Below, in pieces: positions 13,137 through 48,987 of a stretch of 55,549 bases of DNA. This DNA comes from Chloroflexota bacterium (lineage in GTDB: Bacteria; Chloroflexota; Chloroflexia; QHBQ01). The notes beneath the pieces are model-generated. The model had not been told where the DNA came from, did no database searches, and saw only the letters and a list, made by a program, of their open reading frames with translations. Every line of letters starts with the position of its first letter. Position 1 is the stretch's first letter. The stretch is from the NCBI GenBank assembly GCA_043754535.1, contig JAYUUN010000022.1:1-55549 (forward strand). The letters run 5' to 3'. The translations under genes were made by a program, and so were the position numbers.

Positions 13137-13205
13137 CCCGCTAAGGACAACCTGGCTGCTGCTAATTGGTTGTTAATCCAAATGGGCTATCCAGCTTTTG
13201 CCAGA

Positions 13206-13216
13206 TGTGCTATAAT
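13206..13216 (+). promoter_or_regulatory. Extended -10 promoter (TGTGcTATAAT), probably giving a leaderless mRNA
   Basis: TATAAT ends 6 nt before ATG 13223; no SD. Confidence 0.65.
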
Positions 13217-13222
13217 CTGCTC

Positions 13223-14176
13223 ATGAGCGACCCAGCCCTTAGTGTAATTATGGTCAGCTACAACACTTGTGCAGTTTTGCGCCAGGCGTTGCGGAGCGTC
13301 TTTGCCAGCAGCACCTCCTTCCCCTTCGCGGTCTGGGTGGTGGACAATGCTTCCCAGGACGGTAGCGCAGAGATGGTGGCAAACGAGTTCCAGCCCCAAC
13401 ACGCCAATCTGCACCTGATCCGCAGCCCGCGCAATGGTGGCTTCTCCTACGGCAACAACCTCGCCCTCAGCGAGTTTAGTGCGGCAGGTCGTGCAACTGG
13501 TCAGCCAGGTGCGGTAGCAAACATCGTCAGCAAGTACGTGCTGCTGCTCAACCCTGATACGATCCTGCCGCCCGATGCGCTAGCCGCAATGGTCGCTTTC
13601 ATGGACGCACACCCCCAGGCTGGTATTGCTGGGCCGAAGATGGTGCGCCCCAACGGGCAGCTAGACCTGGCGTGCAGGCGTGGCTTCCCTACCCCGCTCA
13701 ACTCGATCTACAAGTTGGCTGGCCTCAGCAAGCTCTTTCCCCACTCGCGTCGCTTCGCCAGCTACAACATGACCTTTGCTGACCCTGACACCTTGACCGA
13801 GGTGGACGCGGTGATGGGCGCGTTTATGCTGCTACGGGCTGAAGCGATCAACCAGGTCGGGTTGATGGATGACAGCTTCTTCATGTATGGCGAGGACTTG
13901 GACTGGGCCTACCGCATCAAGCAGCACGGCTGGCAGGTCTACTACAATCCCGCCGTGCGGGTGATCCACTACAAAGGTGAGAGTACGCGGCGTAGTAGCT
14001 ATCGCATGATTATACAGTTCTACCGCAGTATGAGCATCTTCCACCACAAGCATTATGCCGGCACTACCTTCTTCCTGCTCAACTGGCTGATCGCCATCGG
14101 CATCTGGGGCAAGGCTGGCCTGGCACTGGTGCAGAACTTGCTCCGCCCCAGCAGCAGGAAGCGAGTAGCTTTATGA
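13223..14176 (+). CDS. GT2 family glycosyltransferase (WbbL-like)
   Basis: LSVIMVSYNT, VVDNASQDGS, NGGFSYGNN, LLLNPD, GAFMLLR, FFMYGEDLDW. Last codons are GCT TTA TGA (TTA 14171-14173). Confidence 0.92.
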   Translation: MSDPALSVIMVSYNTCAVLRQALRSVFASSTSFPFAVWVVDNASQDGSAEMVANEFQPQHANLHLIRSPRNGGFSYGNNLALSEFSAAGRATGQPGAVANIVSKYVLLLNPDTILPPDALAAMVAFMDAHPQAGIAGPKMVRPNGQLDLACRRGFPTPLNSIYKLAGLSKLFPHSRRFASYNMTFADPDTLTEVDAVMGAFMLLRAEAINQVGLMDDSFFMYGEDLDWAYRIKQHGWQVYYNPAVRVIHYKGESTRRSSYRMIIQFYRSMSIFHHKHYAGTTFFLLNWLIAIGIWGKAGLALVQNLLRPSSRKRVAL

Positions 14177-18883: not shown

Positions 18884-19636
18884 TTGCTGCAAGCAAAACG
18901 CATTCAGGCGATCATCTTCGACCTGGGCGACACCCTGATCCGCACCCCGATCAGCCAGTATGAAGACGACCACTTCTACGCTGAGACTGCCCGGCAGTTG
19001 CGCCTGGCCCGCCCAGATGTGGCCCTTGACGCAGAGCAACTGCGTCACCACCAGGGGTTGGTTGGTCAAATGATCGCCGACTCCTACTACGAGGAGCAAC
19101 CATCAGCCCGCCTGGAGTACGACGCGGCAACCACGATGGCTCTGGCGATGCGCCAGGTCGCCCCACAGTACGCTGATGATGCGGCCTTGCAGCGCACGAT
19201 CTACGATATTGGCCGTGGGTTGATCTACAGCCCGGCGGTGGTCAGCCCCTACACCTATGCGGTGCTGGACGATCTGCGTGGACGCGGCTATCGTCTCGGT
19301 CTCTGCTCCAACTACTTCGGCTACGCTGACGTGGTGCTGGATAGTACGCGCGAGATCGGCATTGCCGGGCGGCTAGACGCTTGCGTGTTCTCTTGCGAAG
19401 TGGGCTGGCGCAAGCCGAACCCCCGCATCTACACTGCGATCTGCGCAAAGCTGGCAGTCGCGCCCACCAACTGCCTGTTCGTCGGCGACCGCCTGCTAGA
19501 GGATATACATAGCCCACAAGAGTTGGGGATGCAAACCGTCCTCAGTCATGAGTACCGCCAGGAGCAGCCAGTGGCTAGCACGCCCCCGCCCGATCTGCTG
19601 ATCGAGCGGCTAGATCAACTGTTGGCTGCTTTGTTA
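18884..19636 (+). CDS. HAD-superfamily hydrolase (standard code would extend to 19753)
   Basis: GGAGG RBS plus TTG; FDLGDTL, CSN, KPNP.IY, FVGDR..EDI. The domain ends ERLDQLLAAL, followed by in-frame TTA at 19634. Confidence 0.85.
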
Positions 19637-24660: not shown

Positions 24661-26046
24661 TAACGCTGACTGGAACTCACCATCGATCTCGTCCTCCACC
24701 TTCTTCTCGTTCACTTTGGTCAGCAGCAAGATGCCAATCAGGTAGTAGATCGCGGCACCGACCATGATCGCGCTGTAGGTGGCGACTGGGTTGAGGTTGG
24801 GGTTGAGGATGCTGGCGATCACCGTGCCGAAAACCGGGGAGAGTGCCTGCGCCCCCGCCGTCGCCAGGTTGCTGACCCCCATGTACTTGCCTGCCTGACT
24901 GCGCGGGATCAGGTCTGTGACCATCGCCCAATCCACTGCGGTGAACATCCCGAAAAAGAGGCCAGTGAAGGTGCTGAGGATGGTTAGTAGGGTGAAGTCA
25001 CGGAAGAAGACCAGGGCGAGCGCGCCAAGAATGCCGAACACCCCACTGAGGGCGATCAGCGGCTTGCGCCCATAGCGGTCGGTGAGGAAGCCGCTGATGA
25101 TCGCTGAGATAAAGCTGAAGCTGATCACGATCACCTGGATGATCGTGTAGCCTGCATTCGCGTCGGGCAAGATCAGGCCAAAGAAGTTGTAGTTCTTCAG
25201 CTTGATTACATCTTGGATGTAGTAGAGGGCGTAGGTGGTGATCGTGGTGAAGCCCATCAGGCTGAACAGGCGGGCGATCAGTAGCCAGACGAAATCGGGA
25301 TACCGTTTGGCGTTGATGCTGACGATAGAGGTTAGCCGCTGGCCGAAGCTGATCCGTGGGCTGGGCGGTAGCTGGTCTGTTGCTTGCTCGCGCAGCAGCA
25401 GGATGTTGACCAGCCCACCGAGGGCAACGATGATGATCACCCCCAGGCTCGCCCCGGCCAGGTCGTTGCGGCTGAGGCTGATACCCATGTAGATAGCAGA
25501 GCCGATCTGCCCGAACATCTGCGCCGCCCCTAGTGCGCCGCTGGCCTTGCCACGATCCTCCGCTAGCACGCGGTCGGGCAGCAGGCCGTGATAGGGGCCA
25601 AAGGCGACGTTGGAGAACAACTGGGTGAGGCCATAGAAGAAAAGAAGCCACCACCAGCCAAGTAGGACAGAGAGGGTCAGTCCTAGCACGCTGATCAGGG
25701 TCAAGGTCGTGCCAATGAAGACGAAGGGAACGCGCTTGCCCACCTTTGACCGCCAGCCGTCGCTGATCGCCCCGAACATGGGCTGGGCGAAGGCGGCGAT
25801 GATCAGTCCAGGGAAGGTGATCCAGCCGAGCGCAGTGAGCTTGTTGTCGGCAACGGTCAGGCCGAACAGCCGTAGCCCTTCGGCGGGCAGCAGCCGCTCG
25901 TTGAGGTTTGGTATGATGAACTGGCCTATGGCACCCCAAAGTACGGTGAAGGCAAACTGGTAGGCGCAGAACCAGAGGTAGTCCAGCCCGCGCATCTTGT
26001 GGGCGGCTGGGTTGACCTTCGCCATTGGTTGGTTAGCAGTGGTCAC
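24661..26046 (-). CDS. MFS transporter (12 TM, sugar-type); standard code would extend to 24592
   Basis: QPMFGAISDGWRSKVGKRVPF, LPD.V..EDRGKASG, GFLTDRYGRK, DWAM..D. Acidic tail ends DGEFQSA, then TTA. Confidence 0.88.
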
Positions 26047-27213: not shown

Positions 27214-27813
27214 TTACACCCCCACGGTCAGCCCTGCCACCGCCGCCCTGCCTCCCTCGGTGATAAACTCGCCGCGTACCCGCTCGGTCAGTACCGCCGC
27301 AAAGTCGTATTCCAGCAGTCGTGCGCTGAGGCTGGCGACCTCGTCCTCCGCCAAGGGGTATTCTACGGTAGTGATCAACTTGCCCTCGTCGCTGGCTAGG
27401 TAGTCACTGGCGAAGATCACGCTGTCTGCGCCGCTATAGTGCAGGTAGTGGCGGTGCTTGCCCGGCTGCTCGATCACGAGCAGGTCGCTAGTCGCGTCGG
27501 CCCGACGCAGCACCTTGCAGCCAAATGCTTCCTGGTAGGCAGCCAGGCCGTGATAGGCTCTCTCAGTCAGGAACAGCAAATCTACCCCACCTAGCGCGTC
27601 CAAAGCCTCAAACAGGTCGTCGCTCAAGTCAGGCAGCCCCACCAGCACCTTGCTGCTAGCAACAACGAAGTAAGCGAGTCGCTGCCAGCCTCCATCCTCA
27701 TCCTCACCCTGACCATGCTGGTAGATGGCGTAGACGTGCGGCGGTATTAGCAGGCTCATGTTCGCTGCCCGCAGCAGGAACTGCGTCTCGCGGGAGTTCT
27801 CCTCGCCCAGCAT
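27214..27813 (-). CDS. Hypothetical protein, degenerate metallo-beta-lactamase-like fold
   Basis: AAGGAG RBS; LGGVDLLFLT, FGCKV, PG.H, VIFASD resemble an MBL fold lacking the HxHxDH motif. Confidence 0.55.
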   Translation of the reverse strand: MLGEENSRETQFLLRAANMSLLIPPHVYAIYQHGQGEDEDGGWQRLAYFVVASSKVLVGLPDLSDDLFEALDALGGVDLLFLTERAYHGLAAYQEAFGCKVLRRADATSDLLVIEQPGKHRHYLHYSGADSVIFASDYLASDEGKLITTVEYPLAEDEVASLSARLLEYDFAAVLTERVRGEFITEGGRAAVAGLTVGV

Positions 27814-29381
27814 AACGCGCTCTCCTTCTCTGCTTCGCTGCCCCGCCGCAGCAGGAAGATGGCTGGCAGGATCGCTACCACTGCCACGATGGCCGCCGCC
27901 CTAAACTCCTCGGTGTAAATCTGGACAAAGGCGGCAACCACCGCCTGCCCGTTCAGGCCCGCGTTCAGGTTGGCGAGACGTACCAGGCCCCAGGCTTGCA
28001 GCAGCGGCAGGGCAAGGGTCATCCCTGTCAGGCGGGCGAAGGTGACGGTGGCGGCGGCGATGCCTGCCCGGTCGCGGGGCATGGAGTTGATCGCGCTAGC
28101 TGAAGTGGGGGCGATCAGCAGGCCAAAGCCCAGGCCGATCAAGCCCAGGTGTAGCCAGGTCGCCACCGGGTCGTAGACGCTGGCCGCACCCCAACCAGAG
28201 AGTAGCCAGAAGCCCGCCGCCACTGCCAGCAAGCCCGCGACCGCCACCACAGGGTAGGTTAGCCGTTCGCTGAACAGGCCACCGAGGATTGCGCCGAGGG
28301 GAATGAAGGCGGTCATGTGCAGCAGCAACAAGCCCCCCTCCACCGCTCCGTCATGCCCAGCCACGCCAGTGAACACCACATTGCCGAGCAGGGCGAGGTT
28401 CAGTTGGGCAACGATCAGGGCCGCTCCGATCAGCAGATTGACCAGGTTTGCGCTGACGAAACCACGAATGGTGAAGTCGCGCAGTGGCAACAGCGGGTCG
28501 TGACCTACCCGCTCGACGACCAGAAAGAGAACGAGGGCCAGGATCGCGCCGCCCGCAAACCAGGGGAACAGTTCGGTGGCGAACAGGCGGATCGGCGGTA
28601 GCTCTGTCTTCTGCGAGAGGGCGAGGGTAAGCAGCAACAGCGTGCCGCCGAGCAGCAGCCCTCCCAACCAGTCTACCTTTGCCTGCGACTTGACGTTGGC
28701 TGGTACCAGGCGTAGGAGCAGGAAGATAGCACCCAGGCTGAGGGGGATATTGAGCAGGAATATCCAGTGCCAGTCCTTGATCGCTAGCCCCAGGCCGCCA
28801 ACCCCGAAGTTTAGCTGGCTACCCCTGAGCAGGTTGACGACCGCCACCCCATAGAAGGGGCCAAGCACGCCGCCCGCCTCGGCTACCGCCCCGATCATCC
28901 CCAGGGCGAAACTGCGCCGTCGGGGAGCAAACAAGTCGCGCACCATTGCCATGCCAATGGGCAGCACCGCCCCGCCGCCAACCGCCTGCACCACGCGGAA
29001 GCCTAGCAGCCAGCCAAGACCAGTGTCCACCCCAAACACGTCGCTGCCAGACAGCGCACAGCCAAGCGAGCCGATGATAAAGAGGATCATAGAGGCGACA
29101 TAGGTGCGGCGGTGGCCGAATATGTCGGCGATGCGCCCTAGCAGCGGCAGGGCCAGGGTGTAACCCAGCAGGTAGGCGGTGACGATCCAGCCCGCCTGAT
29201 CAAGGTTGTTGATCGGGATACCCAGGTCGTTGATCACCTTCGGCAGCACGGTGACGATCACCGTCTGGTCGAGGGCGGCCAGGAAGATGCCGACGCAAAT
29301 CACCGCCAGGGTGAGGATCGGTCGCCGATTTCCGCTGACCGCCTCTACCCCTGCCTCCCGCTCCAAAGCCGCGCTGGACAA
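27813..29381 (-). CDS. MFS drug:H+ antiporter (DHA2/EmrB-like, 14 TM); standard code would extend to 27756
   Basis: FLAALDQTVI, WIVTAYLL, GRIADIFGHRR, RVVQAVGGG, WIFLLNIP. Confidence 0.9.
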
Positions 29382-42484: not shown

Positions 42485-43075
42485 ATGGCAATCCTTGATA
42501 TTGTACAGGACGGCGACCTGGTGCTGGCGAAGAAATGCACGCGGGTGACCACCTTTGATGCAAAGCTGCGTAAGCTGGTGGATGATATGTTTGAGACGAT
42601 GTACTACGCAAACGGCGTGGGCCTGGCCGCCAACCAGATCGGCCTGCCGTTGCGCCTGATCGTGATCGACGTGCCGCCCGATGCAGAGGACAGGCAGCGT
42701 GGCTTCAAGATTGCGATGGCGAACCCAGAGATCGTCAGGCTGGAAGGGGAGGAGACTACCCCCGAAGGCTGCCTCAGCGTCAAGGGCTGGGTGGGCGATG
42801 TGCAGCGGGGCTACAGGGTAGAGGTCAAGGGGTTGGCCCTGATGCCTAATGGTCAGTGGAAGGAGCAGAAGGTCAAGGCCCATGGCTTTCTCGCCCGCGC
42901 GTTCCAGCACGAGTGCGATCACCTCAATGGGGTTCTCTACACCAGCCGTGTAACCGACATTACCACGCTGCACAAAATAGAGCGCAGCGAAGAAGAAGTT
43001 GAGCAACTACGCCAACAACTCAGCGAACTACGCGAGAGCGCAAATGCGGGTGCGGCAAAGGACACAGGTGCGTTA
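42485..43075 (+). CDS. def: Peptide deformylase (ends at TTA; fused to the next gene under the standard code)
   Basis: GVGLAANQIG, EGCLS, QHECDHLNG. Confidence 0.93.
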
Positions 43076-43885
43076 ATGGCAAGTCTACGTGTGATGAGTT
43101 TTAACATCCGGGGGGCGAACTACCCTGACGGCGTGAACGCCTGGCCTGCCCGTGCTGCCCTCAATGTCGCTACTATCCAGCAGTATGGCCCTGACCTGAT
43201 CGGTTTGCAAGAGGTGCAGGCCGACAACCTGACCTACTATCGCCAGCACCTACCAGCCTACCAGTTCGCCCCTGGCCCACAGTACAACAACACCGAACCC
43301 TACGACTATGTGGCCCTCGCCTGGCGACCAGAGCGGCTGCAACTGCTGCACGCGGGCGGCTTTTGGCTCAGTCCCCAGCCCGCGCACTACTCCGGGCCAG
43401 CCTGGGGGGCAGTGCAGGTGCGCTCGGCAAACTGGGCGCGCTTTGAACTGGTGCAGGGCGGTCAGCAGTTCGTCCACCTCAACACTCACCTCGACTACAT
43501 CAGCGAGCAGGCCCAGGTGGAGGGAACGAAGCTGATCCTCAGCCAACTGGCGGGGGTGCGCGGCGGCCTACCCGCCCTCGTCACTGGCGACTTCAACTGC
43601 AACCCCGACAGCGAACCGCACGCTCTATTCCTTGCTGCTGGCTACCAGGACAGCTACATCACGCTTGGCAATCGTGACGACTTGGCTGACCCCACCAGCT
43701 ATACAACCCATTACTTTCTCGGCGACGGCTACCGCCCGCAGGACTTCCATGGCTCTGGGCGTATAGACTGGCTGCTAACCAGGGGCGCACTCACGCCCAC
43801 CAGCTACGCCGTGGCCCGTGATGCCCAGCCGCCAGCCTACCCCAGCGACCACTATCCTGTGCTGGTAGAGTTCAGTCTCGGCTGA
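43076..43885 (+). CDS. Endonuclease/exonuclease/phosphatase (EEP) family protein
   Basis: ATG directly after TTA; LRVMSFNIR, DLIGLQEV, NTHLD, TGDFN, RIDW, SDHYPV. Confidence 0.9.
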   Translation: MASLRVMSFNIRGANYPDGVNAWPARAALNVATIQQYGPDLIGLQEVQADNLTYYRQHLPAYQFAPGPQYNNTEPYDYVALAWRPERLQLLHAGGFWLSPQPAHYSGPAWGAVQVRSANWARFELVQGGQQFVHLNTHLDYISEQAQVEGTKLILSQLAGVRGGLPALVTGDFNCNPDSEPHALFLAAGYQDSYITLGNRDDLADPTSYTTHYFLGDGYRPQDFHGSGRIDWLLTRGALTPTSYAVARDAQPPAYPSDHYPVLVEFSLG

Positions 43886-44452: not shown

Positions 44453-46246
44453 TTAATCCTCAAAGTAGCCGAAGCGTTCAGGGTCGGCGCGCAGGTCGAA
44501 GCCGTTCGCCAACGCTTCGGCGGCCACTTCGATCCCCCGGCGCACCATCGCGGTGCTGAGCGGGTGCTGCTCTGGGGCGAAGGAGAGCAGACTGGCGGCG
44601 ACCCCCAGCGTGATACGCGCTAGACCTTCCTCACCAGCGAGGGCTAGCCACTCGGCCATGCGCCCCAGGCGGGCAACGCAGGCGGTCAGCCGCTCTCCCC
44701 CGAAGCTTGCAGCGATCAAGCGGCGGGTAGCAGTACGCAGGGCTGCATCAAGCTGCTCCTGCTTGCGCTTGCTGGGCTTGCCGCGACGTGGCATCAGGGC
44801 CAGAATCTGCTCTACCTCGTCGTAGAGGGCTGGGCTTTCGATGAACCAGCCGACAAAGTAGCTGCTCTCTAGCAGTGCCAGCACCGCTTCTTCCACCTCC
44901 TGCGGCGAGTAGAGGCGGGGGGTAGGGGGCAGGGCGACGCTCACTGGCTGCGGCGGCGCAAACTGCCAGATCGTCTGGCTGAACAACTGGTAGCCAAGTG
45001 GCAGGCTGCGCTCCTTCGCCCAAGTCTGTGTGTGGGCGGCCAGTAGCAGGCAGCGAGCGTAGTCGAAGTCTACCTCAAGGTGTGGCACGTCGCCCACATC
45101 GTCGTCCTCCAACTCTGCGTCGGCTAGCAACTCCGCAAGGTTGGGGTCGGCGGCGGCAGGGTTGATAGCCACCAGTTCGCGCAGACTGTCGCGTATCTCG
45201 CGGTTGAGGTTGTTGGGGGCAAGGTCTTGCAGCAGCCCATTGTGCTGGCTGCCGAGCGGCGCGGGCGGCGGCAGGGCAGCGGTAGGGTAGCGTATCTGGC
45301 CTAGCGCATCCTTCACGCCAAGCTCCTCGTGCAAAAGAACGTTGAGCAACTCGTACTCGTCGCCGTCTGGCACCGCCAGCCAGAGCATCTGGGTGCCACG
45401 ACCATCAAGTAGGCTGAGGAACGCGCGGCTGCCAGTCGGCGGCGAGACAGGGCTGGGCGATGGCGCGCCGAGGGGGGTGGACAGGCGCAGCTTGCGGATT
45501 GCCCGCTCCACTGGGGCGCGTTGGTCGGGCGGCAATAGGGGAGCTAGCGAGAACAGAGCGGCGGCGGCGGCGGCACTACGCCCTCCAGACCGCTCTTGGG
45601 CGATCCGCAGCAACTCCTCCACCGCCTCCGCCTTCAGGTCGGTGGTCTGGGCGAACAGGCGCAGCGGCAGCACTCCCAGGCTGCCCTCCATGTCGTGCAA
45701 GCTGCTGAAGAAGATTTCGTGGACTTCGGGTGGGCTAGCCAGCACACTGTCCATGTAGTCGAGCAGCAGGCCGGGGCTGGCTACTGCCTCCTCCAGGCTG
45801 ACTTCGAGCGAGCGGCGGGCGGCAGTGGCTGGGTCGCGTAGGGTCGCCATGAAACTATCGGAGAGCGGTTCGCCACTATGCTGGGCGAGGACGCTGGCGC
45901 AGGCTAGCCGCTGCAAGTCGGGCCGCTGGCGGTCGTGGCTGGCTCGTTGCAAGCCGTCAACCAGTACGTGCTGCACGCCGGGCAGCGCAGCCCCGATCAG
46001 TAGCAGGCTGCATTGTAGCACGCTAGCACGATAGTCGTTCAGCCGCTCCAGCAAGACAGCCAGCACAGAGCGTGCGCTGCCACTGTGCGCCGCTTCGTAG
46101 GCCAGCAAGGTGATCCCCGGGGCGGTTGGTGCGGTGCTGAATAGCACTTCGAGAGCAGCATCGGCCTTTTGCCGCTCGGCCAACACACGGTCGAGGCGGG
46201 CTGGCTCTGGCAGCTTGCGGCGGCTGTCGGGCGGCTGGCTCATCAT
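44453..46246 (-). CDS. Hypothetical protein (597 aa)
   Basis: Long ORF; TGATG coupling with the upstream gene. Confidence 0.7.
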   Translation of the reverse strand: MMSQPPDSRRKLPEPARLDRVLAERQKADAALEVLFSTAPTAPGITLLAYEAAHSGSARSVLAVLLERLNDYRASVLQCSLLLIGAALPGVQHVLVDGLQRASHDRQRPDLQRLACASVLAQHSGEPLSDSFMATLRDPATAARRSLEVSLEEAVASPGLLLDYMDSVLASPPEVHEIFFSSLHDMEGSLGVLPLRLFAQTTDLKAEAVEELLRIAQERSGGRSAAAAAALFSLAPLLPPDQRAPVERAIRKLRLSTPLGAPSPSPVSPPTGSRAFLSLLDGRGTQMLWLAVPDGDEYELLNVLLHEELGVKDALGQIRYPTAALPPPAPLGSQHNGLLQDLAPNNLNREIRDSLRELVAINPAAADPNLAELLADAELEDDDVGDVPHLEVDFDYARCLLLAAHTQTWAKERSLPLGYQLFSQTIWQFAPPQPVSVALPPTPRLYSPQEVEEAVLALLESSYFVGWFIESPALYDEVEQILALMPRRGKPSKRKQEQLDAALRTATRRLIAASFGGERLTACVARLGRMAEWLALAGEEGLARITLGVAASLLSFAPEQHPLSTAMVRRGIEVAAEALANGFDLRADPERFGYFED

Positions 46247-48987
46247 CAGTGGATGTCGGGGGCGGTGCTGGCGGGAAGATCGCGGGTGAGAGCCGCAGGG
46301 TCGCTGCTGGCAGGCAGGTCGCCCAACAGAGCATCCGGCTGTTGGGCCTTCAGTTGAGCTTCGGCCCTGCGCTCCAGCCTGTCAGCCTCACGGTAATCGC
46401 TGCTCACTCGCTCAAGCAGGGGGCTAGCTACTGCCTCGTCGTACCAGCCCCGCACCTCAGTCGCCAGCGCAGCGGCTGGCAGCAGCGAACCTACGAGCGT
46501 ATCGGCAGCCAGGCGGGCAGACAGGGCGTGGTAATCACCCACGTAACGCTCTGTGCTAGCGTAATCTCGTACTTCATAGCTGCTGGCGACCTCATCCAGC
46601 AGCGTAAAGAGGCGGGCGTTGCTGTCCAACTCGCCTGCCAGGTCAGCCAGTGGCGGGCAACCACTAGCCTGCGCTGCCGTGCGGGCGGCGATAGTCAGCC
46701 GTTGCAGGTCAGCTTGCTGCGCCTGCCATTCACTGCGTAGCGCACTTGGGGACTGGGCCAGCCGCAACCGCTCCTCACGCCCACTGCTAACTGCTGCTGC
46801 TCCATCCCACGCGTAGTAGTTAGCCAAGAATTGCCAGAGTGGGCTACCCCTAGCCAGAGCCGCCCGATAGAGGTTTAGGTCGTCGTGCAGCAGAACCGCT
46901 ACCTGACCCTTCTTGGCCCTGTACTGAGTTTGCCACTCTGCCCCGGCTGCTTCTACTTGCCCATCGCTGGCTGCTTCGAGGGCCAGGTCTACTCTGGTGA
47001 TCGTCTGCTGCATCTGGGTGCTGACTACTACCGCCTGACGCATGGTGGCAGGGTCGCTAGCCCTGCTGTACTGGCGCAGGCTACTGCTCAAGCCCGCCAG
47101 GGTGAGCGACCCACGACTGGCATCGCGCAGGTTGATTGCAGGCTGGCGGTAGCTGCTAACCTGTGGGGTTGCCTCTACATTAGGTAGAGGAGTGCTGGCG
47201 GGCGTACCCGGCCCAGGGGTGGGGGTCGGCTTCTTGCCCGTCAGGTTGTTATACTGTTCGATTGCCCACTTACCAATATGGGCGCGGGGAATGGCGAAGT
47301 CGCCTACTTTGGTCGGCACCTTGTCCGGCCAGGTGTCGGCGGCAAGGTCGTAGATCGTGTAGAGCAAGCCGAGGGAGATCGCGCTGTAGATGACGAAGCG
47401 GATCAAGCTGGCGATGAAGCCGCCCACTTTCCGCCCTGCGCTCACTTTGGCTGGACCAACGGAGGCTAGCAAGGTCTGCCCCTCGTTGGCGGGGCCAAAC
47501 TTGGGACGGTTAGTTTGGCCCTTGCCCGTTGGCATCGCCTCTACGTTGCCGCGCCCCAGTTCAAGCAAATCCACTGGCAGTTGACAGTTGGGGCAGCGGT
47601 CACCCCGTGGGTCGTGCGGCACCGTGGTATCCACGTACTCACCGCAGCGTGGGCAGCGGGTGTAGAACTGGAAACGACAGTTGGGGCAGGAGAGAGCGTT
47701 CTCCGAAGCGGGCTGACGGCAGTTGGGGCAGGGGAAGGTAGCGACCGCTCGTGGGCCTGCTGGCGCACTGACTGCCCCACCGCTGTCGCTGATCATACCG
47801 CCGCCACCCACACCGCCATTGACGATTGGCGGACGGGCAATCAGCAGTGGTGACGAGGGTTGTGGTACCTCTACTGGCTGCTGATCGGCAGCCGCAAAAG
47901 AGAGACCACCGCCACTCAGCCCAGCACGGGCGGCTAGGCCACTTGCTGGTGGGGTTGCCTCGCGGGCATCCTCAAAGTTGTTGGCTCCGCCAAAAGGCCG
48001 ATTGACCACGCCGCCAAACACCCCGCTGCTGCCGCGTTCCGCTGGGGGGCCGAAGGGCGAAGGCGGTGTGGGGGCAAAGCTGCTGAAGCTGGCCTCCGCT
48101 GGGCTGGCGATTGGGGGAGCGGGCGGTGGACTGCTACCTTCACTCTGGCTGCCGCCCGCGCCGCCAAACAGGTTACGCAGCGAGTCGAACTCACTGGCCG
48201 GGGGGGGTTGGCCGAGCGACTCCGGGACTAGCTTGCCGCTGCTGGTTAGGCGGGTAGCTGGTCGCTCCTGCGTTGGTTGGGCAAAGGGGTCGCCAAAGGG
48301 TGAGGGGTTGACCGCAGGCTGAGCAAAGGGCGACTGGCGAGCGGTATCCGCAGGTGGTGCGCCGAAGGGTGCGGCGGGTGCGCTGGCAAAGGGCGAAGCG
48401 GGGGGTGGGCTAGCGAAGGGTGAAGCGGCCACGCTATCCCCAGCCAGGGTGAAGGGTGCTACAGGTGGCTGGTTGGCGAAGGGTGAAGCTGGCGGCGCAC
48501 TGGCAAAAGGCGAAGCGGGCTGAGCGAAGGGCGACGCAGGGGTATTAGCAAAGGGCGCGTCGTTCAGGCGGGCGACTGTCTCCTCGTCAAATATCACTGC
48601 GCCACTGCCGTCGCTGCCATTAGAGGCCTGGTTGGGGGCAGGCGGGTTGAGTGGGCCGTTGCCAAAGCTCGCTCCAAAAGGGCCATTACCCAAGCTAGTG
48701 GCTGGCTCCTCCACCGGGCTGGGCCGCAAGGCACCCTGTTCTTGCAGATGGCTTAGACCCTTGAGGGCAGCGGCGTTGTTCGGGTTGAGGGTGAGGACAT
48801 TTTCGAGGCAGGTGACCGCGTCGGCAGGGTCGTCCACCACGCCACTGAGCCAGAGCCATGCCTGCTCGCTACGCTCGTCTAGCTCTAGCACTTGTTGCAG
48901 CAAGCTACTAGCCTGGGCGCGGTCGCCACGTCGGGCGGCAGCCATACCTTGCTGCAACAAATCGTTTGCCTCTGAGTTGCTCGCCAT
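46246..48987 (-). CDS. TPR + Pro-rich + double zinc ribbon + TM + helical extracytoplasmic domain protein
   Basis: AWLWLSGV..CLENVLTLNPNN (TPR); ASPFA repeats; CPNC/CPNC/CPRC/CPNC; one TM; GGAG RBS. Confidence 0.8.
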   Translation of the reverse strand: MASNSEANDLLQQGMAAARRGDRAQASSLLQQVLELDERSEQAWLWLSGVVDDPADAVTCLENVLTLNPNNAAALKGLSHLQEQGALRPSPVEEPATSLGNGPFGASFGNGPLNPPAPNQASNGSDGSGAVIFDEETVARLNDAPFANTPASPFAQPASPFASAPPASPFANQPPVAPFTLAGDSVAASPFASPPPASPFASAPAAPFGAPPADTARQSPFAQPAVNPSPFGDPFAQPTQERPATRLTSSGKLVPESLGQPPPASEFDSLRNLFGGAGGSQSEGSSPPPAPPIASPAEASFSSFAPTPPSPFGPPAERGSSGVFGGVVNRPFGGANNFEDAREATPPASGLAARAGLSGGGLSFAAADQQPVEVPQPSSPLLIARPPIVNGGVGGGGMISDSGGAVSAPAGPRAVATFPCPNCRQPASENALSCPNCRFQFYTRCPRCGEYVDTTVPHDPRGDRCPNCQLPVDLLELGRGNVEAMPTGKGQTNRPKFGPANEGQTLLASVGPAKVSAGRKVGGFIASLIRFVIYSAISLGLLYTIYDLAADTWPDKVPTKVGDFAIPRAHIGKWAIEQYNNLTGKKPTPTPGPGTPASTPLPNVEATPQVSSYRQPAINLRDASRGSLTLAGLSSSLRQYSRASDPATMRQAVVVSTQMQQTITRVDLALEAASDGQVEAAGAEWQTQYRAKKGQVAVLLHDDLNLYRAALARGSPLWQFLANYYAWDGAAAVSSGREERLRLAQSPSALRSEWQAQQADLQRLTIAARTAAQASGCPPLADLAGELDSNARLFTLLDEVASSYEVRDYASTERYVGDYHALSARLAADTLVGSLLPAAALATEVRGWYDEAVASPLLERVSSDYREADRLERRAEAQLKAQQPDALLGDLPASSDPAALTRDLPASTAPDIH

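Follow-up and report, generated by a model that had tools for sequence, protein, structure and literature searches.

UUA very probably ends translation in a family of Chloroflexia bacteria, dividing an apparent peptide deformylase fusion into two genes

We analyzed a window of 55,549 nucleotides (contig JAYUUN010000022.1, positions 1 to 55,549) from a Chloroflexia genome labeled G000 here (3.87 Mb, 61% GC, 88.9% complete). Positions 42485 to 43885 on the forward strand form a single frame of 466 aa under translation table 11. As an earlier note on this DNA had described, it encodes an entire peptide deformylase followed by an entire protein of the endonuclease/exonuclease/phosphatase (EEP) family, with Pfam matches at residues 4 to 159 (peptide deformylase) and 204 to 456 (Exo_endo_phos). 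The junction reads GGT GCG TTA ATG GCA AGT CTA CGT GTG ATG, and its TTA (43073 to 43075) and ATG (43076) are directly adjacent at the domain boundary. This TTA is the only one in the frame, so reading it as a stop codon yields just two products: a deformylase of 196 aa (def, 42485 to 43075, forward strand) and an EEP-family hydrolase of 269 aa whose own ATG abuts the TTA (43076 to 43885, forward strand). Within residues 1 to 196, the deformylase matches positions 2 to 153 of the 156 in PF01327, exceeds the cutoff for TIGR00079, and contains GLAANQ, EGCLS, and HECDH, which we take to be deformylase motifs. The downstream product matches the full PF03372 profile (1 to 225 of 225) and is an EEP hydrolase by profile, with a putative nuclease role and substrate.

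The start of the EEP gene at the junction Met agrees with its homologs, since five of the seven that we aligned begin in the column of this residue (Met198). Among the 120 matches listed of 1,011, homologs are mostly stand-alone proteins of 256 to 320 aa, and none of the other 119 combines a deformylase with an EEP domain, the natural fusion that the earlier note had named as the alternative. The Shine-Dalgarno-like motifs pointed out in that note are present within the 3′ end of def (43058 to 43069, forward strand; AAGGA at 43058 to 43062 and AGGT at 43066 to 43069), but they carry little weight, with a pairing energy of about −6.7 kcal/mol against an assumed anti-Shine-Dalgarno 9-mer that may not be the host's. 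Two assumed 16S 3′-end motifs had no match in the G000 assembly, and promoter, terminator, and Rfam scans of the locus returned nothing relevant. The junction occurs without substitution or indel in contigs from two sequencing runs of other studies (X7 and X9) and also agrees in X1 and X5, both flagged as possible source runs; an assembly slip at the junction is ruled out. Downstream of the EEP gene, the regions at 46249 to 48987 and 44453 to 46246 (minus strand) encode large proteins with weak TPR or zinc-ribbon matches or no Pfam match.

The family comprises five genomes in our collection: G000 and G001 in one genus (g1) and G002, G003, and G004 in a sister genus (g2). The def gene of G001, 97% identical to that of G000, ends in the same way (KDTGA-TTA-ATG). 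In g2, def ends in GDTGV-TAG (G002), GDTGA-TAA (G004), and GDTGVS-TGA (G003), and the tail of the G000 deformylase aligns in frame with these orthologs right to the TTA. Canonical stop codons thus align with the TTA in two genomes and lie one codon later in the third, which upholds the proposal that TTA is a stop at this junction. The EEP gene was found in G001 and, with this query, not found in G002 to G004 (assemblies 83 to 84% complete). Among the genomes found, G001 is the only one besides G000 with the joined frame, and it again has TTA; no relative was found that combines the joined frame with another sense codon at the junction. The earlier note considered this junction the cleanest single test of the codon's meaning. 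We disagree: because TTA-ATG also forms a TAATG overlap (+1-frame TAA at 43074), the junction alone is not the cleanest test, and the genome-wide tests decide instead.

In G000, TTA is nearly absent from gene interiors. Its frequency in the central parts of 1,166 long ORFs was 0.071 per 1,000, versus a background trinucleotide frequency of 4.14 per 1,000, and of the 435 TTA in ORFs with 300 or more codons, 320 lay in the first or last tenth. Low-GC ORFs contained 2 TTA in 8,732 codons versus 165 CTA and 169 TTG. Of 181 first in-frame TTA found, 121 could be scored, and the coding score past the codon was negative in 82% of these, compared with 8 to 17% in the same test for five other rare codons (AGA, TCA, TGT, CGA, and ATA), and the next table-11 stop followed TTA after a median of 19 codons versus 132 to 172 for other rare codons. 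The neighboring codons keep their meanings: UUG stays leucine (TTG at 14 per 1,000 mid-gene), TCA stays serine (1.9 per 1,000 mid-gene), and TAA, TAG, and UGA remain stops.

The 2,701 called genes of G000 end in TAG (1,031), TGA (816), TAA (635), or TTA (219), although the last count is not independent because the gene caller itself treats TTA as a stop. Five TTA ends lie in the window. Besides def, they belong to a GT2 glycosyltransferase (13205 to 14173, forward strand), whose ortholog in G004 has a TAG there; a HAD hydrolase (18884 to 19636, forward strand), with the next table-11 stop 39 codons on and, in its best G004 match (42% identity), a TAG two codons away; and two MFS transporters (24661 to 26025 and 27813 to 29366, both minus strand), each with TTA in G001 as well. 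The TTA overlaps the next start as TTATG at 15 of the 219 ends. A terminator scan was too sparse to be informative, with hits at 3 of the 219.

Comparisons within the family agree with these genome-wide patterns, extending the earlier note's proposal beyond the junction. We compared G000 with 716 kb of G002, which gave 413 ortholog pairs, 169 of them with ends within 1 aa. In 34 of these 169 co-terminal pairs, TTA in one genome stands opposite TAA, TAG, or TGA in the other (15 with TTA in G000 and 19 with TTA in G002), and in two pairs TTA stands opposite TTA. With TTA read as a stop, ends fell within 3 aa of each other in 20 of 28 and 25 of 34 cases; under table 11, the corresponding numbers were 3 and 5. 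Comparisons with G003 and G004 yielded the same kind of end swaps in fewer cases. Gap-free alignments of G000 with 376 kb of G001 covered 52,008 codons in 261 genes. From G000 to G001, we observed no change from TTG to TTA at 779 codons and none from CTA to TTA at 603, while twelve other third-position G-to-A changes, including the one involving rare AGA, occurred at 32 to 139 per 1,000. Had TTA been gained at those rates, about 65 to 70 synonymous changes to it would be expected. TTG to TTA was also absent between G004 and G002 (0 of 42). In 17 genes, substitutions at codon positions 1, 2, and 3 numbered 35, 29, and 149 before the TTA and 23, 25, and 24 after it, a loss of third-position bias that resembles the loss past TAA, TAG, and TGA.

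Protein family models place the gene ends similarly. When 94 TTA-ending genes of G001 to G004 were extended beyond the TTA, 56 had an NCBIfam match, and the top model stopped before the TTA in all 56 (e.g., cysS 490 of 490 and ClpB 853 of 853). A lower-ranked model crossed the TTA in two of the 56 proteins, one of them an NnrE|NnrD frame with TTA in G003 and TGA or TAA at the corresponding place in G000. Housekeeping genes with a TTA end include def (G000 and G001), cysS and ClpB (both in G002), and rpoA and tgt (both in G003). Separately, a G002 protein (L072:2715-3206) matches a Uxx-star family glutaredoxin-like (seleno)protein model, and the match ends three residues before a TTA.

Mid-gene TTA is rare throughout the family, at 0.05 to 0.14 per 1,000 in the five genomes (relatives sampled at 25 to 400 kb each), versus 2.2 to 3.0 per 1,000 in three genomes of similar GC from family f2 and 0.25 to 0.8 per 1,000 in two GC-richer genomes from family f3. 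The release factor genes of f2 and f3 carry TTA at leucine positions, and these sister families read TTA as leucine. Samples of 6 to 40 kb from 19 further genomes of the class had TTA inside aligned genes in 13; the remaining six, which are GC-rich, had none in small samples of 101 to 340 leucine codons. No G000 TTA fell in a conserved column in alignments with outgroups (16,786 columns), G003 (7,874), or G004 (13,353), and the conserved columns of g2 likewise held no genuine internal TTA. Two sets of apparent internal TTA matches against G002 (14 and 59) were Val/Gly repeat frames that we judged by inspection to be antisense shadows and dropped.

Table 11 produces other apparent fusions in G000. 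A frame of 1,221 codons (C107:21292-24954; L239:2293-5955) joins an SDR protein and two PmbA/TldD proteins with two TTA as separators. A frame of 1,573 aa on the minus strand of contig C1 (L242:856-5643) joins a membrane protein to a GH35 protein, with TTA after codon 783, an ATG six codons past it, GH35 beginning after the TTA, and g2 homolog matches ending there; it is probably two genes. Among 19 TTA candidates in G000 with coding sequence on both sides, many, the C107 frame included, have a plausible new start codon soon after. At least three TTA seem to be internal: C62:38295, in an FG-GAP/SLH gene whose paralog has Leu and which has no G001 match; C103:85513, in a membrane protein gene where G001 has TTG; and C90:396, in a gene whose product looks, on visual inspection, like a restriction-modification protein. 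These may be premature stops or candidates for read-through. Given one canonical premature stop per 52,008 codons in G001, a few disrupted genes are to be expected; leaky reading of the internal TTA as leucine is also conceivable.

The tRNA sets found differ between the two genera. Among 46 aragorn calls in G000, leucine tRNAs with CAA, CAG, UAG, and GAG anticodons were present, and searches of G000 and G001 (assemblies 87 to 89% complete) did not detect tRNA-Leu(UAA). The G000 calls also lacked Ala(UGC), Thr(GGU), and Pro(CGG), and its arginine tRNAs had GCG and UCG anticodons and none ACG. All three g2 genomes encode tRNA-Leu(UAA) according to Rfam (53 to 54 bits; G002:C96:14751-14834, G003:C600:1379-1461, and G004:C292:1497-1580), with a C31·A39 mismatch (4-bp stem and 9-nt loop) and, in G003, a compensatory stem change; matches for the CAA, CAG, UAG, and GAG tRNAs stand beside it. 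In G002, the cysS gene next to tRNA-Leu(UAA) itself ends in TTA. The syntenic interval of G000 (C57:32128-33588), bounded by the two genes whose g2 orthologs flank the tRNA, is assembled and contains an unrelated ORF and no tRNA-Leu(UAA). We rejected low-threshold Leu(taa) calls in G000, which lay inside genes or folded badly, and an aragorn call of tRNA-Pyl(CUA) on contig C31 with a broken T-arm and acceptor stem. G000 has tmRNA.

We examined the release factors of the family for a candidate reader of UUA. PF00472 matched RF1 and RF2 in each genome, with no ArfB-like third protein, and RF3 was not found above the cutoff in any of the five. The CTT-TGA shift site of prfB is kept in all four family genomes in which it is assembled. 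The family RF2 sequences form one branch (SH-aLRT 100 in a quick tree of 56 rows). We compared them, as partly redundant rows, with 118 other, mostly Chloroflexota sequences plus three solved ones, using Thermus thermophilus residue numbers from chain 4v4s_AY. Position 131 is E or A in 11 of 11 family rows versus D in 118 of 118 others, position 189 is M in 12 of 12 versus L in 118 of 118, and position 202 is Q in 12 of 12 versus H in 115 of 118 (Q in the other three). F195Y is a further family change, with Y also in 12 of the 118 others. We take D131 to be involved in reading the second codon base; our literature search found no passages on the role of RF2 D131/D143. Point changes in RF2 (E167K and F207T) can widen codon specificity, according to one study (PMC11903333), and another describes D329, behind R213, as bearing on codon specificity (PMC7530605). 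The family keeps S193 and S204 (the latter in 12 of 12 rows); from the numbering on 4v4s_AY, Ser204 would be the serine of RRHTSF. In RF1, every invariant residue of the recognition loop is kept; the family has lost an acidic residue at 141, where all 118 other sequences carry E or D, and in g1 the residue at loop position 194 is K.

Several candidate markers in RF2 were set aside. A change from L to F or Y in RSYV[L] is not family specific, as the solved RF2 9fy1 has F there. A change from TSF to TAF (RRHTAF, of the organellar Ser204Ala type) occurs in families f5, f12, f13, and f16 (L189-L218, L219-L237) and is common in Thermomicrobiales-like genomes. It does not mark UUA as a stop, because three RRHTAF genomes use TTA inside aligned genes (12 times in G102 and 6 times each in G086 and G150); small samples of four others (G106, G092, G089, and G185) contained no TTA. 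A single-sequence AlphaFold model of RF2 had a pLDDT of 42 and was also discarded.

From these comparisons of sequence, we consider it very likely (probability about 0.9) that TTA (UUA) terminates translation in this family and that def and the EEP gene are separate adjacent genes; the 466-aa fusion is most likely an artifact of table 11. For TTA to be a very rare leucine codon and the 466-aa protein a real, genus-specific fusion, one could cite the frame that is open in both g1 genomes, the tRNA-Leu(UAA) of the sister genus, and the few internal TTA. That reading is nonetheless extremely improbable given the ortholog stops at the junction, the absence of any further two-domain protein among the 120 matches listed of 1,011, the complete lack of the expected synonymous changes to TTA, and the sequence past TTA, which evolves as noncoding. 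It is hardly more plausible that ribosomes slip +1 at TTA onto an overlapping TAA or TAG (T-TAA-TG), or that a frameshift or assembly error affects the TAATG overlap. The junction does contain TAATG, and A or G comes next at 140 of the 219 TTA ends in G000, but T or C comes next at the other 79 and at 54% of the 76 TTA ends in g2, which are most often followed by T; in addition, the def tail stays in frame with its g2 orthologs and the contigs from other studies show no indel. UUA could instead be unassigned, with stalled ribosomes cleared by tmRNA, by drop-off, or by slow misreading through an unchanged release system. The tRNA-Leu(UAA) not found in g1, the tmRNA, and the unchanged Ser204 would fit such a state. 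However, tagging would be expected to destroy the products of def, cysS, ClpB, rpoA, and tgt, a back-up stop within 10 codons is as frequent after TTA as after TGA (0.34 versus 0.34), there is no ArfB-like protein among the PF00472 matches, and g2 has the tRNA yet the identical end pattern. We regard an unassigned UUA as very unlikely.

If TTA is a stop, its reader is probably RF2, as suggested by the family-wide RF2 changes, the ordinary RF1 loop, a TGA-like +4 base, and back-up stops that are no commoner than after TGA. The +4 base is G at 55% and C at 11% of TTA ends, compared with G at 40% and C at 16% for TGA and C at 47% for TAG. RF1-type factors have been proposed for UUR stops in some algal mitochondria (PMC12574857), and the family's loss of the acidic residue at 141 and, in g1, the K at 194 would also suit an RF1 reader; against this, the invariant RF1 loop residues are all kept, UUG remains leucine, the +4 context is unlike that of TAG, and the changes shared across the clade concentrate in the reading head of RF2, which makes RF1 a rather unlikely reader. 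A separate matter, which is compatible with UUA as a stop and concerns leakiness only, is whether UUA has a dual meaning, at least in g2: a stop in most instances, with some low-level or controlled leucine read-through by tRNA-Leu(UAA). Because this tRNA is encoded there, UUA could still be leucine in g2. The tRNA is conserved in three of three g2 genomes, and 9% of the TTA ends in g2 have a back-up stop right behind them, versus 4 to 6% of other stops, a difference based on only 76 cases. On the other side are the lack of genuine internal TTA in g2 conserved columns, the lack of TTG-to-TTA changes between G004 and G002, and the C31·A39 mismatch, which may weaken the tRNA. A dual meaning is thus possible but on balance unlikely.

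With UUA as a stop read by RF2, the changes D131E/A, L189M, F195Y, and H202Q, which lie in or beside codon-reading elements, would let RF2 accept U at the second position, and the altered factor would gain UUA in addition to UAA and UGA. At the locus, the 196-aa deformylase would be released and ribosomes would then reinitiate at the adjacent ATG. Historically, RF2 may have been altered in the family ancestor, with g2 retaining tRNA-Leu(UAA) with its C31·A39 mismatch and g1, the genus of G000, probably losing it.

The labyrinthulean mitochondrial code, which we take to be NCBI table 23, is one of the known codes with a UUA stop. Such stops occur in mitochondria of labyrinthuleans and Marsupiomonadales and in plastids of peDinoflagellates, the plastid case being described, in 2025, as the first sense-to-stop change outside mitochondria (PMC12574857). 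As in labyrinthulean mitochondria and peDinoflagellate plastids, UUA in this family has been all but lost inside genes and occupies their ends. The plastids, in which UUA and UCA are stops linked to RF2 Ser204 (PMC12574857), share with the family the false fusions that arise under table 11 and the implication of RF2. In contrast to the organellar codes, the code here would serve a bacterial chromosome (3.9 Mb in G000, where some 200 genes end in UUA), TCA is still serine, and Ser204 is kept (Ala, Gly, or Cys in organelles) while other RF2 residues are changed. Whereas peDinoflagellate plastomes encode no tRNA-Leu(UAA), g2 keeps it. The missing Ser204 change and, in g2, the missing tRNA loss set this family apart from the organellar UUA code. 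In Marsupiomonadales and Pseudoscourfieldia mitochondria, UUA has likewise changed from leucine to stop, but there UUG has become a stop as well and the altered factor is mtRF1a (PMC12574857), whereas here TTG is a common leucine codon and the RF1 loop is ordinary.

Leucine-codon control of the Streptomyces type, presumably that of bldA, is not matched in this family, since TTA stands at the ends of def, cysS, rpoA, and clpB and there is no synonymous gain of TTA. UUA in Streptomyces is described as rare and regulatory (PMC10732093); it is exceptionally rare in a GC-rich bacterium there as here, but in Streptomyces it is leucine inside genes, decoded by a stage-regulated tRNA, and here it marks the ends of genes, housekeeping genes included. 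Known bacterial variant codes include UGA read as Trp or Gly and the Arg-codon reassignments of the Codetta screen (PMC8629427). Like the change described here, these are lineage restricted and occur in uncultured bacteria, but they are stop-to-sense or sense-to-sense. Codetta cannot detect new stop codons (PMC8629427), which would explain its missing a change of this kind. Our literature search, which covered subscription journals thinly, found UUA stops in organelles only and none in bacteria; this would be the first sense-to-stop reassignment on a bacterial chromosome that it could find.

We tentatively propose that this free-living bacterial family may use a four-stop code (UAA, UAG, UGA, and UUA), reached by an RF2 route other than Ser204 and preserved in two stages: an ambiguous intermediate in g2, in which a working tRNA-Leu(UAA) would compete with RF2, and g1 without this tRNA. 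If UUA does end about 8% of the genes on a whole chromosome, a sense-to-stop change would be shown to be viable in a free-living cell. The presence of the tRNA in g2 and the failure to find it in g1 make it possible to test in which order the steps of codon reassignment occur, and the RF2 residues named above become candidates for second-base specificity. Annotating the family with table 11 creates false C-terminal tails and false fusions, the deformylase-EEP protein among them. For the bacteria themselves, the extra stop codon, if true, would truncate many incoming phage and plasmid genes.
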